From the NCBI GenBank assembly GCA_027493775.1, contig JAOSKE010000003.1:618845-682844 (forward strand): a DNA stretch of 64,000 bases. Direction: 5' to 3'. This document shows, piece by piece, positions 1,307 through 53,043 of the stretch. This DNA is from Kiritimatiellia bacterium. Its GTDB lineage: Bacteria; Verrucomicrobiota; Kiritimatiellia; CAIVKH01. The notes under the pieces are model-generated. The model ran no database searches. It was given only the letters and a program-made list of their open reading frames with translations, and was not told where the DNA came from. Position numbers and translations under genes: made by a program. Position 1 is the stretch's first letter. Each line of letters opens with the position of its first letter.

Positions 1307-1936
1307 ATGGAAAACGTAGTCGAACTTCGACACCCGCTCGTCCAGCACCACCTTTGCGGGTTGCGCAACAAAGAAACACCGTCCTCCGAGTTCCGACAGG
1401 CGGTGAACCGGCTCTCCATCCTGCTTGCCTACGAGGCAACCAAGGACCTCGGGCTACAGGAAACAACCGTCCAAACCCCGCTCGCGACGGCCCGGGGGCA
1501 CACCCTTGCCAGGCGCATCGGACTGGTTCCCATCCTGCGCGCCGGACTGGGCATGGTGGAGCCGATCCTTAATTTAATACCCGAGGCGGAGGTCTGGCAC
1601 CTCGGTTTCTACCGCGACGAAAAACATTGCGACCGGTCGAGTACTATAAAAAGCTCCCCCGAACGCGCGGTGGATGTTGCGCTCGTACTCGATCCGATGC
1701 TCGCCACCGGCGGCTCCGCCGTCGCTGCAGTGCAGGCGGTGAAAAGCTGGGGCGCAAAGCAAGTCAAGCTCATCTCCATCATCGCCGCGCCCGAGGGTCT
1801 TCGCGTCATTCGCGAAGCCCACCCCGAAACCCTCATCTACACCTGTGCGATTGACTCGCATCTCGATGAAAACGGCTTCATCGTGCCCGGCCTCGGCGAC
1901 GCGGGCGACCGCACGTTCAACGCGCGCGCAAAATAA
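1307..1936 (+). CDS. upp: Uracil phosphoribosyltransferase
   Basis: Motifs VPILRAGLGM and VLDPMLATGGS. A 12-aa segment (1622-1660) is out of frame. The alternative frame gives RPVEYYKKLP, matching UPRTases, which implies a compensating -1/+1 indel pair at an A-run and a C5 run. Confidence 0.9.
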   Translation: MENVVELRHPLVQHHLCGLRNKETPSSEFRQAVNRLSILLAYEATKDLGLQETTVQTPLATARGHTLARRIGLVPILRAGLGMVEPILNLIPEAEVWHLGFYRDEKHCDRSSTIKSSPERAVDVALVLDPMLATGGSAVAAVQAVKSWGAKQVKLISIIAAPEGLRVIREAHPETLIYTCAIDSHLDENGFIVPGLGDAGDRTFNARAK

Positions 1937-1947
1937 AAAAGGGACCT

Positions 1948-2715
1948 ATGCGCAGCGTGGCTCTCCTTGCCCTCCTGATTCCCCTTCTCGCATTGACGGG
2001 TTGCAGCGCGACACAGAAGCCAGCGGCATCCGCCGACTACGAAATCCTGCGCATCCTCCCGCACGACGCCTCCGCGTTCACGCAGGGCCTGCTCTTCCAC
2101 GACGGAAAATTGTTTGAAAGCACCGGACTTTACGGCCAATCCACGTTGCGCGAGGTTGACCTCCAAACCGGCGAAATCGCCCGCAAACGCGCCCTGCCCC
2201 ACAACCTTTTTGGCGAAGGACTCGCGCTCTACTCGAACCGCCTCTATCAGCTCACCTGGCGCGAAAACATAATCCTGCTCTACGACGCAACGACATTCGA
2301 GACAACCGGATCGCTGCCGTGGAAAGGCCAGGGCTGGGGCCTCACGGCGTGGAGCAACCAGCTCATTGCAAGCGACGGCTCGGCGCAGCTCCGCTTTTAT
2401 GATCCGCAGACAATGAAGCTGCTCGGCGAAGTCACCGTCCGCGATCAGGGTCAACCCATCGCGCAACTGAACGAGCTTGAAATGGTCGAAGGCGAACTGC
2501 TGGCCAATATCTGGCGCGAAGACCGAGTCGCGCGGATTGATCCTTCCACCGGCAACGTACTCGGCTGGCTGGATTTTTCACCACTGGTTCCCGAGGGACT
2601 GCGCGCCTCGCGCGAAGCCGTGCTCAACGGCCTCGCCTACGACCCGGCGACGAAGCGACTCTTTGTAACCGGCAAAAACTGGCCGGTTCTCTACGAAATT
2701 CGCCTCAGCAAATAA
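1948..2715 (+). CDS. Glutamine cyclotransferase (plant/bacterial-type QC) lipoprotein
   Basis: Lipobox LALTGC. Beta-propeller QC family similarity over 255 aa. Confidence 0.75.
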   Translation: MRSVALLALLIPLLALTGCSATQKPAASADYEILRILPHDASAFTQGLLFHDGKLFESTGLYGQSTLREVDLQTGEIARKRALPHNLFGEGLALYSNRLYQLTWRENIILLYDATTFETTGSLPWKGQGWGLTAWSNQLIASDGSAQLRFYDPQTMKLLGEVTVRDQGQPIAQLNELEMVEGELLANIWREDRVARIDPSTGNVLGWLDFSPLVPEGLRASREAVLNGLAYDPATKRLFVTGKNWPVLYEIRLSK

Positions 2716-3355
2716 CGCACCGCTCTATTCCCCCTGAATCGCCATGCGCCATGCGCCTTTTCGCCAGCATTCGCATCAGCACGCCTGGGCCGCGATGCAG
2801 CCTGCTCTCGTTCAACTCCACGAGGTCCTTGCGCACTTCCAAAATCTCCGCGTCGGCAAAATCAGCGCGCAGGTTTTCCTCGGTTAACAATTTCGACCGA
2901 TCACGCGGACCGCCGGATTGGTACCGCAGTTGGTCGGCGTGAAAACCTTCCAACAAAAAGTAGCCGCCGGGCTTCAGCGAATTAAACATGGCGGCATGAA
3001 TCCGCGCACGGTCTTCTTCCGCGTGATGACAATAAATTGAAATCACCCAGTCGAACGACTCCGCGGGCCACGCCCACTCCCCCACATCCGCCAGCTCAAA
3101 AGCAACCTTCACACCGCGCTCCGCCGCGAGCTGACGCGCGCGATCCTGCGCTTCGCGGGAAAAGTCTATGGACAGCGCCTTCAGCCCCCGCTCCGCCAGC
3201 CAGACCGCGTTTCGCCCGCTGCCATCAGCGGGGAGCGCCGCGCACTGGCCGGGCTTGAGAAGCTCCTTCTTTTCCACCAAATAAAGACTTGGCGCCGTGC
3301 CATACGCATGACCGTCCTCGCGATAGCGCACATCCCACATTGTTGAATCACTCAT
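2705..3355 (-). CDS. Class I SAM-dependent methyltransferase
   Basis: Rossmann MTase motifs (ALDLGCG-like: AALPADGSGRNAVWLAERG; acidic loop SIDFS). Confidence 0.65.
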   Translation of the reverse strand: MSDSTMWDVRYREDGHAYGTAPSLYLVEKKELLKPGQCAALPADGSGRNAVWLAERGLKALSIDFSREAQDRARQLAAERGVKVAFELADVGEWAWPAESFDWVISIYCHHAEEDRARIHAAMFNSLKPGGYFLLEGFHADQLRYQSGGPRDRSKLLTEENLRADFADAEILEVRKDLVELNESRLHRGPGVLMRMLAKRRMAHGDSGGIERCVIC

Positions 3356-11302: not shown

Positions 11303-11595
11303 TTTCTTCCGCGTGTTTCCGTGGTTTGGTGGGGCCGGAACGTTCACGATGAATCGTGACGTTACAAATTGAGTTATTATTCCCCTTCGGTCGCGAACCC
11401 TATCCCCCCCACGGCGCGCCTCAGTTTACCCGCTTGTGGAGGGCGGTCGCGCCCCACCAGCCACAACACAACCGTGAAGCACACAACAATTCCCCTTCCG
11501 CGTCCTTCCCGTGCTTTCCGTGGTTAAAAACCTTCACGTCATACGCCATGCGTTCTGCGTCTTTTGTGCCTTTTGTGGTTAAAAATCTTTCAGCC
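11303..11595. repeat. Mosaic hairpin repeat locus R1: one degenerate unit plus the conserved terminal segment. Same family as R2-R4.
   Basis: Shares ttattccccttcggtcg, ggcgcgcc...cgcgcccc acc, the core cgtgaagcacacaacaattcccctt ccgcgtcc...ttccgtggttaaaaac, and the terminal ccttcacgtcatacgc...gtcttttgtgccttttgtggttaaa (also at 49990-50063). Confidence 0.8.
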
Positions 11596-11626: not shown

Positions 11627-11662
11627 AAAGACAAAAAAGCCCCCCGACTTGCGCCGGGGGGC
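11627..11662 (-). terminator. Rho-independent terminator for the 11687-13384 gene; bidirectional hairpin
   Basis: 9-bp GC stem agccccccg/cggggggct with an 8-nt loop, followed by a T6 run on the minus strand (aaaaaa on plus). Confidence 0.7.
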
Positions 11663-11686
11663 TTTTCGAATCATTTGGGGAAGCGA

Positions 11687-15931: not shown

Positions 15932-16070
15932 AAAGAAGAGCCCAAACCCGAAATTCGCGCTCATTCGCAGTAATCCCGCTGAAACGAGACACGTTTGTGG
16001 GACTATTCTGAAAAATAATCTGCGGGGAGTTTTGGGCCCGCGCGCAACGTTCCGCTTACATGGGCGATGG

Positions 16071-24715: not shown

Positions 24716-25286
24716 GGTAGGGCCCGACCGCTGGGCGGGCCGGAACGTTAACGACAAATCCAAACGCACCATAATTGGATTATTCCCCTTCGGTCGTGAC
24801 CGCTGCACCCCTGCGGCGCGCCCAGCGGTCACGCCCTACCAAACACAGTGAAATCGTGAAGCACACAACAACTCGCTTTCCGCGTCCGTCCGCGCATTTC
24901 CGTGGTTAAAACTCTTATTCTCGTCCTCTGTAGCCGCCCGCGTTGAGGGCGGTCTTACCCCCCCGCGGTCAACGCCCGCGGCTACAGAGAATAACTATCA
25001 ATTGTGATTTAGGTAGGGCCCGACCGCTGGGCGGGCCGGAACGTTAACGATAAATTCAAACGCATCTGAATTGCGTTATTTCCCTTCGGTTGCAACCCAC
25101 ACACCCCCTGCGGCGCGCCCAGCGGTCACGCCCTACCAAACACAGTGAAATCGTGAAGCACACAACAACTCGCTTTCCGCGTCCGTCCGCGCATTTCCGT
25201 GGTTAAAACCCTTATTCTCGTCCCTCTGTAGCCGCCCGCGTTGAGGGCGGTCTTACCCCCCCCGCGGTCAACGCCCGCGGCTACAG
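24716..25286. repeat. Mosaic hairpin repeat locus R2: two tandem units (~296 and ~275 bp)
   Basis: Unit boundaries at ggtagggcccgaccgctgggcgggcc (24716, 25012). Each unit has a 26-nt inverted-repeat pair spaced ~90 nt, the conserved core cacagtgaaatcgtgaagcacacaacaa...ccgtggttaaaac, and a 20+ bp hairpin ctgtagccgcccgcg...cgcggctacag. Confidence 0.9.
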
Positions 25287-29159: not shown

Positions 29160-29306
29160 CGATTCGCACAGCGCATGGCGCCGGAGAAAAGGCAGAAGGC
29201 CGGAACCTGAAACCTGAAAGACGGCTTGGTTAACACGCCCGCGTGTTTACTGAACGTGGCAGCGGACGTTTAAGAATTCATGCCCATTCGCGACAATCCC
29301 GCTGAA

Positions 29307-29345
29307 GCAGGACAAGTTCGCGCAATTCCTGCTGGATTTTTGATT
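29307..29345 (+). terminator. Possible rho-independent terminator after frr
   Basis: Stem gcagga/tcctgc (6-7 bp) with a 14-nt loop, followed by ggattttt. Weak. Confidence 0.3.
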
Positions 29346-49291: not shown

Positions 49292-50063
49292 GGTAGGGCC
49301 CGACCGCTGGGCGGGCCGGCACGTTCACGATGAACCCACACGCAACAAATTGGGGCATTCCCCTTCGGTTGCAATCCCGACATCTCACGCGGTGCGCCTG
49401 GCAGTCGCGCCCTACCAACCACAGTGAAATCGTGAAGCACACAACAATTCCCCTTCCGCGTACTTCCGCGCATTTCCGTGGTTAAAACCCTTAATCTCGC
49501 CCCGCGGTCAACGCCCGCGGCTACAGAGAATAACTATCAATTGTGATTTAGGTAGGGCCCGACCGCTGGGCGGGCCGGAACCTTTGCGACAAATCACACA
49601 CGCACCCAAATTGAGGTATTCCCTTCGGTTGCAATCCCGACATCTCACGCGGCGCGCCTGGCAGTCGCGCCCTACCAACCACAGTGAAATCGTGAAGCAC
49701 ACAACAATTCCCCTTCCGCGTACTTCCGCGCATTTCCGTGGTTAAAACTCTTAATCTCGCCCCGCGGTCAACGCCCGCGGCTACAGAGAATAACTATCAA
49801 TTGTGATTTAGGTAGGGCCCGACCGCTGGGCGGGCCGGAACCTTTGCGACAAATCACACACGCACCCAAATTGAGGCATTCCCCTTCGGTTGCAATCCCG
49901 ACATCCCCCGCGGCGCGCCTGGCAGTCGCGCCCTACCAACCACAGTGAAATCGTGAAGCACACAACAATTCCCTTTCCGCGTTCTTCCGCGCTTTCCGTG
50001 GTTAAAAACCCTTCACGTCATACGCTAAGCGTTTTGTGTCTTTTGTGCCTTTTGTGGTTAAAT
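49292..50063. repeat. Mosaic hairpin repeat locus R3: three tandem units (259, 260, ~253 bp) ending in the conserved terminal segment
   Basis: Units begin at ggtagggcccgacc (49292, 49551, 49811). Units 1-2 are ~97% identical. The core cacagtgaaatcgtgaagcacacaacaattcccctt ccgcgtacttccgcgcatttccgtggttaaaac is conserved with R2. Confidence 0.9.
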
Positions 50064-50110: not shown

Positions 50111-51791
50111 CTATTTCTTCCCTACCTTCGCCCATGCGTCTTTGAGGGTCACAGTGCGACTGAAGGCGGGTCTGCCCGGAGCCGAGTCAATGGCGTCTGC
50201 GACAAAATAACCCAGGCGCTCGAACTGGAACTGTTCCCCCGGCTTCGCCTCTGCGAGGGAAGGCTCTAAGAACGCGGTGACCGTCTTTAGCGAATCGGGA
50301 TTTAGCAATTCCGTGAAGTCCTTGCCCTCCTCCGCGTCTGGCTGCTCAACCGTGAATAGCCGGTCATAGAGGCGCGTCTCCGCTTTATGCGTGGAGGCGG
50401 CGGGCACCCAGTGAATGGTGCCTTTGACCTTGATCTGCGCTTCCGGCGGGGTCCCAGCGGCAGGTAATTCCCGACACGGTTCCATCGTCATTTTTTTCGA
50501 CACCGGTGCAGGTGAGAAAACCAGCATAGCGAATACGAACAGTTTTGCCGGGTGAGAGACGAAAATACTTTGGCGGCGGCACTTCCATAAAGTCGTCGCG
50601 CTCGATAAACAGTTTTGCGCCGAACGGAATTTGACGCGCACCAGCGGAGGGGTCTTCCGGGTTGTTCGTCGCCTCGACGCTCGTCGGAAGGTCACCTGCA
50701 TTTTCTATTGTAACAGGAAGGGGCTGAAGCACCGCCATACGGCGCTGTGCGGTCTTGTTTAGCGCCTGTCGGATGCAATACTCCAACAATGCGACATCGG
50801 TTAAACTCTCGTATTTCGTGATTCCGATTTCTTCGCAGAACGCGCGGATGGCCTCGGGCGGCACTCCACGACGGCGCAGGCCGGAGATCGTCGGCATACG
50901 TGGGTCGTCCCAACCGTTCACGAGTTTCTTCTGCACCAATTCGAGCAATTTTCGTTTGCTCATCACGGTGTAGGTCAGATTCAGCCGGGCAAATTCGATT
51001 TGGCGCGGGCGGGTGGTGAGTCCTTCAAGGTGATCCACGACCCAGTCATAGAGCGGGCGATGAACTTCGAACTCGAGCGTGCAGAGGGAGTGCGTGATCC
51101 CTTCGAATGCATCCTCCAGCGGGTGCGCGAAGTCGTACATCGGATAAATACACCAATCGTCGCCGGTCAGATAATGGCGTTCGCGCATAATTCGATACAG
51201 CACAGGGTCACGCAGGTGGATATTCGGCGACGCCATATCAATTTTGGCGCGAAGGCAAAGCGTGCCATCTGGAAATTCGCCTGCGCGCATACGCGCGAAG
51301 AGATCGAGATTTTCTTCGACGCTCCGATTGCGATACGGACTCTCTTTCCCCGGTCGCGTCGGCGCGCCGCGATATTCCTTCCACTCCTCTTGTGTCAACT
51401 CACACACATAGGCGTTGCTTTTTCGGATCAGGTCACGCGCGACTTCGTACATTCGTTCGAAGTAGTGAGAGGAGTAGAAAAAGTGCTCGCCCCAGTCCCA
51501 GCCCAACCAGCGAACATCCTTTTTGATATTCTCGACGTACTCCACCGATTCCTTTGCCGGGTTCGTATCGTCCATTCGCAGATGACAGATTCCGCCAAAC
51601 TCCTGCGCCATTCCGAAATCCAGACAGATCGCCTTCGCGTGTCCGATATGCAAGTACCCATTCGGCTCCGGCGGAAATCGCGTGACCACCTTCCCGCCAT
51701 TTTTGCCGGCCTTCACGTCCTCCGAAATCATTTCGCGGATAAAGTGCATCGGCTTCGGGGATGCCGTTGAATCGTTAGGGCTATCGCTCAT
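50111..51791 (-). CDS. glnS: Glutamine--tRNA ligase. Frameshift near 50450 (G/C run).
   Basis: HIGH motif ([13 protein letters not shown]), KMSKS-region VMSKR, and a C-terminal anticodon-binding domain aligning to E. coli GlnRS (KVKGTIHWV...RLYDRLF). Confidence 0.9.
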
Positions 51792-52017: not shown

Positions 52018-52446
52018 TCCAACTATAGCGGCCGCGGCTATAGAAGAAACAGCCAGCTCCCTCTATCTCCATCCCTTTCCGCGTAATTCCGTGGTTCAAA
52101 CTCTTAATCCACTGTAGCCGCCCGCGCTGAGGGCGGTATGTTTACGATTTATCTCGCTGTTCCATATCGGCTTATTATTTCCCTTCGGTCGTGATCCTCA
52201 CAACCTCCGCGGCGCGCCCGACGGTCACGCCCTACCAGTTACGGTCAAATCGTGAACCACACAACAATTTGCATTCTGCGTTCTTCCGCGTAATTCCGTG
52301 GTTCAAACTCTTAATCTCATCCACTGTAGCCGCCCGCGCTGAGGGCGGCATGTTTACGATTTATCTCGCTGTTCCAAATCGAGTTATCATTCCCCTTCGG
52401 TTGTAAATCCCACAACTCACCCCGCGGTCAGCGCCCGCGGCTACAG
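52018..52446. repeat. Mosaic hairpin repeat locus R4, immediately 3' of tRNA-Val: two divergent units with the hairpin-B halves split to the array ends
   Basis: Contains ctgtagccgcccgcgctgagggcgg (x2), ttcccttcggt, ggcgcgcccgacggtcacgccctacc, the core gtgaaccacacaacaatttgcattctgcgttcttccgcgtaattccgtggttcaaac, and terminal ccccgcggtcagcgcccgcggctacag. Confidence 0.85.
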
Positions 52447-53043
52447 GGCAAACAGCTGGGTCGGACGATTAGGTTTAGCGCGAGCCGAAGGTGTCAGTCC
52501 TCACTTTCGGTGGTTTCTGTAACGCAAAGGTCGCAAGGTCCGCAATCGAAGCGAATCGAAATATGCATTAAATGTGCGCAAGGATCGGGAAGATGCATGG
52601 CGCGAAATTAAGCGCACGGGCCAAAATTTCCAAGGGTTGGAAGTCTTGTCCGAAAGGACTTCCAAGGGTTGGAAATTCTCCGCGAACTCATCCCGTGTTG
52701 GCGGGATTTACGCGAATTTGTACAAAATGAGGGCGCGAAATTTTGGCCCGCGCGCAACTTATTGGCAGAGCGCTGATTGCGGTTTTTTATTGGGAAAATC
52801 CCCTGTTAATAACTCGCGCCGAGGCGAAAAACCTTGCTTCGCAACTTGCTATGGTTGAATGAATTGTAGAAAGTTTAAGAAACTTCTTGTCTGCCACAAC
52901 CTGTGGGGGTAGTTGTTAGGCTCCGTTTAGGGATACACCAATACGTTGTGGTTGTAAATCTGAGCGAAACCGCCCTAAACAACGCTGAAAACGGGTCTTA
53001 GGGTCAAATTTATTGTCACTTTCAAGGGAGAAGGAGTCTGCAA

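Follow-up and report, generated by a model that had tools for sequence, protein, structure and literature searches.

Probable clusters of GTAG-tagged repetitive extragenic palindromes in the genome of an uncultured Kiritimatiellia bacterium, with inverted pairs and conserved linkers repeated in tandem

Repetitive extragenic palindromes (REPs) are palindromic sequences of 20-50 nt preceded by GTAG; a REP and an inverted REP joined by a linker constitute a bacterial interspersed mosaic element (BIME), often found in consecutive tandem copies (PMC8266576). The cognate gene, which encodes a REP-associated tyrosine transposase (RAYT), is usually present as a single copy, and the REPtron is defined in the same work (PMC8266576, Corneloup et al. 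2021). Here we report on four arrays of hairpin-forming repeats in a 64-kb stretch of DNA from an uncultured Kiritimatiellia bacterium (assembly GCA_027493775.1, contig JAOSKE010000003.1, positions 618,845 to 682,844; hereafter, the window). With a probability of about 80%, we interpret these arrays as clusters of GTAG-tagged REPs in inverted pairs that were tandemly copied together with conserved linkers. The REP/BIME cluster is a known kind of bacterial repeat, met here in an uncultured Kiritimatiellia genome.

GTAG REPs have been described in eight phyla, including the Planctomycetes-Verrucomicrobia-Chlamydiae (PVC) superphylum, and Opitutus terrae is highly enriched in them (Di Nocera et al. 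2013, PMC3733652). Their stems measure 6-9 bp, some copies carry GTGG in place of GTAG, and the changes that separate one subfamily from another are complementary; dimers are arranged head-to-head or tail-to-tail, the head-to-head ones with spacers of 20-100 bp, and heterodimers are common (PMC3733652). The two ends of a conserved spacer are frequently complementary, dimers are tandemly reiterated in clusters, and sites downstream of open reading frames (ORFs) are preferred (PMC3733652). In Pseudomonas fluorescens SBW25, REP doublets forming hairpins (REPINs) build tandem clusters of up to ~700 bp, and dispersed arrays alternate two REP families with fixed spacers of 112 and 72 bp (Bertels & Rainey 2011, PMC3116915).

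The four arrays lie at 11303-11595 (L1), 24716-25286 (L2), 49292-50063 (L3) and 52018-52446 (L4), every one on the + strand and at the positions given in a preliminary description of the window. They have in common a core of ~73 nt, a spacer of ~75 nt (I) containing TTCCCCTTCGG, and two kinds of arms. When compared with shuffles of the window, CGTGAAGCACACAACAA was found 7 times against 0.16 expected, in agreement with the near-identical shared core previously described; TTCCGTGGTTAAAAC, with up to 3 mismatches, was found 11 times against 1.4 expected, 9 of these matches falling inside the arrays; ATTCCCCTTCGGT gave 14 matches against 1.8, and the right arm of what had been called hairpin B gave 5 against 0. 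The tandem period is 296-297 nt in L2, 260-261 nt in L3 (2.8 copies with 94% match according to TRF) and 207-212 nt in L4.

The arrays obey a simple grammar, in which A1 and B1 stand for REPs on the + strand, A2 and B2 for inverted REPs (iREPs) on the - strand, pc for a partial core consisting of the 3' end only, and T for a terminal segment. L2 reads (A1-I-A2)-core-(B1-B2)-linker, twice; L3 reads (A1-I-A2)-core-B2-linker, twice, and then (A1-I-A2)-core-T; L4 is composed of a mini-palindrome, pc and (B1-I-A2)-core-(B1-I-B2), and L1 of pc and (A1'-I-A2')-core-T. The spacer is found inside each dimer and the core between dimers, the dimers occurring in tandem being A1-I-A2, B1-B2, B1-I-A2 and B1-I-B2, with periods of 207-297 nt. 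A single terminal segment closes two arrays, as had been noticed before (11532-11583 and 50011-50062). The features are as follows.

11303-11595, + strand: array L1; partial core, one degenerate REP/iREP dimer, core, terminal segment
11303-11328, + strand: L1 partial core, 3' end only (TTCCGCGTGTTTCCGTGGTT)
11329-11338, + strand: L1 truncated A1-type REP, GTGG variant, GTGGGGCCGG, hairpin deleted
11339-11412, + strand: L1 spacer I, with TTCCCCTTCGG at 11380-11390
11413-11457, - strand: L1 A2-type iREP, GTGG variant, stem GGCGCG/CGCGCC, enlarged 29-nt loop
11458-11531, + strand: L1 core
11532-11583, + strand: L1 terminal segment T, three 9-nt TTTTGTG repeats, ending GGTTAAA
24716-25286, + strand: array L2; two units of A1-I-A2, core, B1-B2
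24717-24741, + strand: L2 REP A1, GTAGGGCCCGACCGCTGGGCGGGCC
24742-24814, + strand: L2 spacer I, unit 1
24815-24839, - strand: L2 iREP A2, GTAGGGCGTGACCGCTGGGCGCGCC
24840-24912, + strand: L2 core, unit 1
24930-24952, + strand: L2 REP B1, GTAGCCGCCCGCGTTGAGGGCGG
24963-24985, - strand: L2 iREP B2, GTAGCCGCGGGCGTTGACCGCGG
24988-25012, + strand: L2 inter-unit linker, AGAATAACTATCAATTGTGATTTAG
25013-25037, + strand: L2 REP A1, unit 2
25038-25111, + strand: L2 spacer I, unit 2
25112-25136, - strand: L2 iREP A2, unit 2
25137-25209, + strand: L2 core, unit 2
25228-25250, + strand: L2 REP B1, unit 2
25262-25284, - strand: L2 iREP B2, unit 2
49292-50063, + strand: array L3; three 260-nt units of A1-I-A2, core, (B2, linker), closed by T
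49293-49317, + strand: L3 REP A1, unit 1
49318-49390, + strand: L3 spacer I, unit 1
49391-49415, - strand: L3 iREP A2 with one C.A stem mismatch (GTAGGGCGCGACTGCCAGGCGCACC)
49416-49488, + strand: L3 core, unit 1
49502-49524, - strand: L3 iREP B2, without B1 partner
49527-49551, + strand: L3 inter-unit linker, first
49552-49576, + strand: L3 REP A1, unit 2
49577-49650, + strand: L3 spacer I, unit 2
49651-49675, - strand: L3 iREP A2, unit 2, GTAGGGCGCGACTGCCAGGCGCGCC
49676-49748, + strand: L3 core, unit 2
49762-49784, - strand: L3 iREP B2, unit 2
49787-49811, + strand: L3 inter-unit linker, second
49812-49836, + strand: L3 REP A1, unit 3
49837-49911, + strand: L3 spacer I, unit 3
49912-49936, - strand: L3 iREP A2, unit 3
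49937-50008, + strand: L3 core, unit 3
50011-50062, + strand: L3 terminal segment T
52018-52446, + strand: array L4; mini-palindrome, partial core, B1-I-A2, core, B1-I-B2
52023-52043, no strand: L4 mini-palindrome, CTATAGCGGCCGCGGCTATAG, probably a collapsed B1/B2 dimer in which CTGTAG/CTACAG changed to CTATAG/CTATAG
52076-52101, + strand: L4 partial core, 3' end only
52114-52136, + strand: L4 REP B1, GTAGCCGCCCGCGCTGAGGGCGG
52137-52210, + strand: L4 spacer I, first
52211-52235, - strand: L4 iREP A2, in hybrid B1/A2 dimer
52236-52308, + strand: L4 core
52326-52348, + strand: L4 REP B1, second
52349-52421, + strand: L4 spacer I, second
52422-52444, - strand: L4 iREP B2, GTAGCCGCGGGCGCTGACCGCGG

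Each arm is a small REP in itself, made up of an unpaired GTAG, a 6-bp GC stem, a loop of 7 or 9 nt and the return stem. A scan of the whole window for GT[AG]G directly before a GC-rich 6-bp stem rendered 41 matches as compared with 17 in shuffles; 21 of the 41 are inside the four arrays, and the ~20 outside are at the shuffle expectation. The arrays contain 19 canonical GTAG REPs of 23-25 nt with a perfect 6-bp stem, plus two variants, one with GTGG and one with a stem mismatch. Types A1 (GTAG-GGCCCG-ACCGCTGGG-CGGGCC, 5 copies) and B1 (GTAG-CCGCCC-GCGYTGA-GGGCGG, 4 copies) are always on the + strand. Types A2 (GTAG-GGCG[C/T]G-loop-CGCGCC; 5 canonical copies, a further one with a stem mismatch and a GTGG variant with a 29-nt loop) and B2 (GTAG-CCGCGG-GCGYTGA-CCGCGG, 5 copies) are always on the - strand. 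By inspection, A and B arms can be aligned with each other through the GTAG, the GC stem and a CGCTG-like loop, and in single-stranded DNA folding all five sequence types form the same stem and leave GTAG unpaired. In the A1 loop, a strain from another sample (contig L001, 3955-3980) has C where the window has T (49292-49317; GACCGCCGGG versus GACCGCTGGG), the C variant being the commonest loop variant in metagenomes.

All four stem types in the window are self-complementary. In the canonical copies the 114 bp of local stem include three G:T pairs and not one mismatch, whereas the long pairing between REP and iREP (A1:A2, B1:B2) has 3-4 mismatches per dimer, mostly at places where the partner types differ by compensated pair flips (GGCCCG/CGGGCC in A1 against GGCGCG/CGCGCC in A2; CCGCCC/GGGCGG in B1 against CCGCGG/CCGCGG in B2). 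As the local stems are free of mismatches and the long pairing is broken at compensated flips, the small hairpins are the conserved units, and the long hairpin arises as a by-product of placing them in inverse orientation. The interchangeable palindromic arms proposed earlier proved to be more than halves of long hairpins, each being a self-folding GTAG palindrome. The compensated differences between partners provide a clean natural example of conservation of the small hairpins and not of the long REP:iREP hairpin, and this conservation fits the recognition of folded single-stranded REPs by RAYTs.

The preliminary description had left room for miniature inverted-repeat transposable elements (MITEs), according to which the long arms would be the terminal inverted repeats of a deleted insertion sequence (IS) moved by a classical DDE transposase. 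The dimensions are indeed MITE-like, inverted repeats of 23-25 nt flanking an insert of ~75 nt for a total of ~125 nt. However, neither a target-site duplication nor a direct repeat flanks any of the four arrays, the left and right arms are consistently of different types, each with its own local hairpin, and the existence of a hybrid B1/A2 dimer and of spacer-less B1/B2 pairs is equally at odds with terminal repeats. The arms moreover carry the GTAG tag, that is, they are REPs and not IS-type terminal repeats, and blastn of one repeat unit against plasmid and phage collections gave no match. We therefore consider a MITE origin very improbable.

Imperfect hairpin modules of ~125 nt in one orientation, with conserved internal mismatches, also call to mind integron attC sites, and the arrays could be attC clusters lacking an integrase (CALIN) with short non-coding cassettes. 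The arm ends are nevertheless GTAG/CTAC and not RYYYAAC/GTTRRRY, there is no GTTRRRY at the unit boundaries, and the GGTTAAAAC at the end of the core does not fit that consensus. The same "cassette" would, in addition, have to stand at four separate intergenic loci, and there are no cassette ORFs. We give this reading hardly any credence.

The REP/BIME interpretation, by contrast, passed every sequence-level test run. The BIME/REP-type mosaic suggested at the outset is borne out by the GTAG tag and short GC palindrome, the alternation of REPs and iREPs, the heterodimers, the conserved linkers, the tandem units and the extragenic downstream sites. The arrays resemble the GTAG-REP superfamily (PMC3733652) in their basic element, a 6-bp GC stem and loop behind an unpaired GTAG (GTGG in one variant), in the complementary changes between stems, in head-to-head heterodimers whose spacers of 20-100 bp have complementary ends, in tandem clusters of dimers and in sites downstream of ORFs between tandem or convergent genes; hosts of that superfamily are known in the PVC superphylum (O. 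terrae). When intragenic, the GTAG-18 repeats of O. terrae encode VGPALAAG, and A1 translates as VGPDRWAG; back-translation suggests that both begin with the same GTAGGGCC head. Unlike in that superfamily, the linkers described here combine great length with strong conservation and have been dispersed along with the REPs, and the portions of that literature on which we draw name no host from the class Kiritimatiellia.

As in P. fluorescens SBW25 (PMC3116915), inverted REP doublets and their spacer can form a long hairpin, near-identical units stand in tandem clusters, and two REP families alternate with fixed long spacers and one orientation per region, as in the dispersed arrays of that strain; the REP sequences and the host are different, and the heterodimers of the window have an interrupted long-range pairing. 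E. coli BIMEs (Y and Z REPs; PMC8266576) resemble the arrays in the inverse alternation of two REP types, the conserved linkers, the consecutive tandem copies and the extragenic location. E. coli REPs, unlike those of the window, are longer imperfect palindromes with a bulge; E. coli BIME linkers are no longer than ~30 nt, as against ~73-75 nt here, and binding of IHF, gyrase and Pol I to E. coli BIMEs is documented.

The core contains TTCCCC and, after it, three TTCCGYG motifs phased 10 nt apart, and ends in GGTTAAAAC; its identity across the four loci is 80-100%. The spacer has conserved ends, a conserved UUCCCCUUCGG and a variable middle. The terminal segment, with TTTTGTG three times at 9-nt spacing before GGTTAAA, has both its copies in arrays between convergent genes and reads like the 3' half of the core with the C's of the motif turned into T.

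The conservation of the core, and the fact that all arrays have one orientation, would suit tandem copies of a structured small-RNA gene, an alternative also raised in the preliminary description, in which the core or the spacer (C-rich UUCCCCUUC) would be functional and the GC hairpins structural. The complementary ends of the spacer pair in 88% of cells, several G:U pairs would fit an RNA of the + strand, and RNAalifold recovers three elements: the long hairpin, a stem of 7 bp between the two ends of the spacer, and a core helix that hardly varies. However, 137 of 500 shuffles reached the covariation score observed for the spacer stem, and the few changes in the predicted core helix are uncompensated; an alternative pairing of the 5' part of the spacer with the 5' part of the core (GTTCACGAT with ATCGTGAA) was discarded, having no compensatory support. 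Compensation within the local stems breaks the long hairpin, which is predicted for independently folding REPs and not for a rod-like RNA. The - strand folds more stably overall, a stability that fits its higher G content and is not evidence of function.

Database and signal searches bear on the same question. Over the whole window only tRNA-Val reached the Rfam gathering score, and at E<=5 there were no matches in L3 and two chance-level matches in L2 (E 4 and 4.8). Promoter- and terminator-like sites in the arrays were at shuffle level and none was conserved across units, the TTNACG-N16-CAWAAT-like pattern found in the spacer by the promoter scan being weak and not significant. Matches to nhmmer profiles of core and spacer were confined to the window and to Logan contigs of the same organism. 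The exact core pattern had 0 matches in 185,579 reference genomes and 0 in Joint Genome Institute (JGI) metagenomes, so that either the core is confined to this lineage or neither collection contains the organism, and protein searches with translations of the spurious ORFs of the repeat, in quest of other copies, found nothing. A repeated small-RNA gene, for which these searches gave no Rfam family, no conserved promoter or terminator, no covariation above controls and no relatives outside this organism, is in our view decidedly unlikely.

Under the REP interpretation, the core would be a lineage-specific linker, similar to the linker motifs that are conserved in E. coli BIMEs, and it may be a protein-binding site. 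It is also conceivable, albeit unlikely, that core and spacer together form a functional cassette spread through the genome by REPs, either as a protein-binding DNA platform or as a C-rich regulatory RNA module of 3' untranslated regions (3' UTRs). If true, this would represent REP-mediated dispersal of a regulatory element.

The head-to-head heterodimers, in which a + strand REP faces a different, inverted - strand REP, constitute the REPIN/BIME arrangement. By the mechanism known from the published family, the REPs would be non-autonomous DNA handled in trans by a single-copy HUH tyrosine transposase (RAYT/TnpA-REP) that would bind the folded single-stranded hairpin with its GTAG tag and cleave and rejoin the strand nearby. 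Tandem duplication, or strand transfer from one REP to the next on the same strand, could then enlarge the arrays. In 3' UTRs the stable hairpins could slow 3' exonucleases, either as a by-product of the repeats or as an adopted use.

Metagenome contig L123 carries one A-type REP and encodes a 209-aa HUH/Y protein, an identical protein being labelled Verrucomicrobia at NCBI. This HUH/Y protein has a match in NCBIfam (NF047646, REP-associated tyrosine transposase; E 1e-12, below the curated cut-off) and another in PDB (4er8, TnpA-REP), and its homologues number 470, many of them annotated RayT; no Pfam-A domain was detected in the family. Three further contigs (L226-L228) encode members of the same protein family. 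On all four contigs, which are related to a Verrucomicrobia metagenome-assembled genome, the RAYT is flanked by tandem arrays of GTAG-REP heterodimers with units of ~115-143 nt, so that REPtron architecture exists in the PVC superphylum to which our organism belongs. These regions (L123, 5850-6900; L226-L228, ~1370-3300) hold heterodimers of GTAGCGGCGAACTGGCGTTCGCCG and GTAGCGGCGGACTGGGGTCCGCCG, which unlike the REPs of the window belong to another family and come without a core-like linker. The attempt to link A-type REPs to a RAYT clade through metagenome loci led to L123 only, whose own flanking REPs are of a different family, and these RAYTs do not identify the enzyme for types A and B. 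In contig L209 (7197-7400), A-type REPs stand on both sides of a fragment from the C-terminus of a Y1-transposase-like ORF (LDYICANPVRAGL); the fragment may be a remnant of the RAYT belonging to the A-type family, and a protein search with it found nothing.

Several points weigh against the REP cluster interpretation. A RAYT gene, which the preliminary description had suggested looking for, was sought inside the 64-kb window by tblastn with an E. coli YafM sequence and by HUH/Y-motif regular expressions, and none was found; the RAYTs of L123 and L226-L228 are flanked by REPs (GTAGCGGCG...) that are neither A nor B. The REP copies, 22 at 4 loci, are counted within the window only. Both the spacer and the core exceed most published REP linkers in length and in conservation and, being found only in this organism, have a conservation that the REP model alone does not explain. 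Mobilisation by a RAYT, transcription of the arrays and a stabilising effect on mRNA are, finally, proposed by analogy with the published family.

Outside this organism, a degenerate A-type REP pattern (GTAGGG-stem-ACCGCYGGG-stem-CC) was found on at least 120 JGI metagenome contigs, and the A-type REP is very widespread in environmental metagenomes. About 35% of the A-type copies among the matches listed have an inverted partner motif within 200 nt, mostly at 28-60 nt. These partners keep the loop and carry other stems that covary and stay self-complementary, in at least six further variants (GGACGG/CCGTCC, GGGCGG/CCGCCC, GGCGGG/CCCGCC, GGCTGG/CCAGCC and GGACAG/CTGTCC among the stems), and exact B2 is present in contigs L199, L214 and L217. 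The exact 25-mer GTAGGGCGCGACCGCCGGGCGCGCC has 81 matches among the matches listed (L091-L210), an unusually broad conservation for a REP sequence. In contig L095 (1796-3743) a biotin-carboxylase-like gene is duplicated in inverse orientation between two A-type REPs whose flanks are identical; as a candidate REP-flanked element this region was rejected, the duplication being probably an assembly artefact at the REP.

All four arrays are intergenic, as had been described, and lie downstream of a + strand gene or tRNA; the ORFs within them are spurious, which likewise agrees with the earlier account. L1 lies 3' of an unannotated + strand ORF, with a strong bidirectional terminator on its other side (11634-11667), the genes being convergent. 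L2 is located between an NnrS gene and a glycosyl-hydrolase-like gene, both on the + strand, and L3 between the last gene of the mevalonate operon (+) and the convergent glutaminyl-tRNA synthetase (GlnRS) gene (-). L4 begins ~13-16 nt past tRNA-Val(GAC), before a class II ribonucleotide reductase gene, with a terminator-like hairpin at 52484-52511 on its 3' side. In both L1 and L4 the order is therefore gene end or tRNA, array, terminator-like hairpin. Because the clusters stand just after genes and, at two loci, before such a hairpin, the arrays are probably transcribed as 3' UTRs, which is plausible at L1 and L4. E. coli BIMEs are usually co-transcribed at the 3' ends of operons.

The GlnRS gene next to L3 (50111-51791, - strand) is split into two overlapping ORFs in different frames, one (50385-51791) covering the catalytic and the first anticodon-binding domain and the other (50111-50701) the C2 domain. 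It was not annotated as a protein, since the flanking genes have the consecutive accessions MCZ7593013 and MCZ7593014; the split is either a frameshift or pseudogene, or an error of long-read assembly. Proteins encoded in the window are identical to GenBank entries of a Kiritimatiellia metagenome-assembled genome (proteins MCZ7592994 to MCZ7593014), on a contig of 867,608 bp. Among GTDB species representatives the closest GlnRS shares only 71% identity, and these representatives offered no syntenic empty site for comparison.

The short-read (Logan) contigs retrieved as carrying the mevalonate kinase or the NnrS gene, from 17 named runs of the Sequence Read Archive (SRA), all break off beyond the stop codon, at a distance of 55 or 121 nt or of 59-61 nt; most often the break falls at the end of the first REP or no more than 3 nt from it. 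These breaks point to a multi-copy array sequence in the genome, and they show that the arrays occupy these sites in all samples seen.

Two further observations concern the window at large. Between 32000 and 42000 its G+C content is 0.47-0.54, compared with 0.56-0.61 elsewhere, and the cumulative GC skew is lowest near 34-36 kb; this stretch could be an acquired island or mark a change of skew regime. An unrelated pair of 44-nt direct repeats, 77% identical (AATTCGCGCTCATTCGCAGTAATCCCGCTGAAAC...), is found at 15952-15995 and 29275-29318.

For those working with this organism, the arrays have the practical consequence of breaking every retrieved short-read assembly at the same nucleotide and of yielding spurious ORFs. 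On our reading, Kiritimatiellia joins the hosts of repeats of the GTAG-REP, REPIN and BIME type, through an uncultured genome seen in 17 or more public sequencing runs. Of wider interest is the question why the REPs should be accompanied by a core of 73 nt that is not palindromic.

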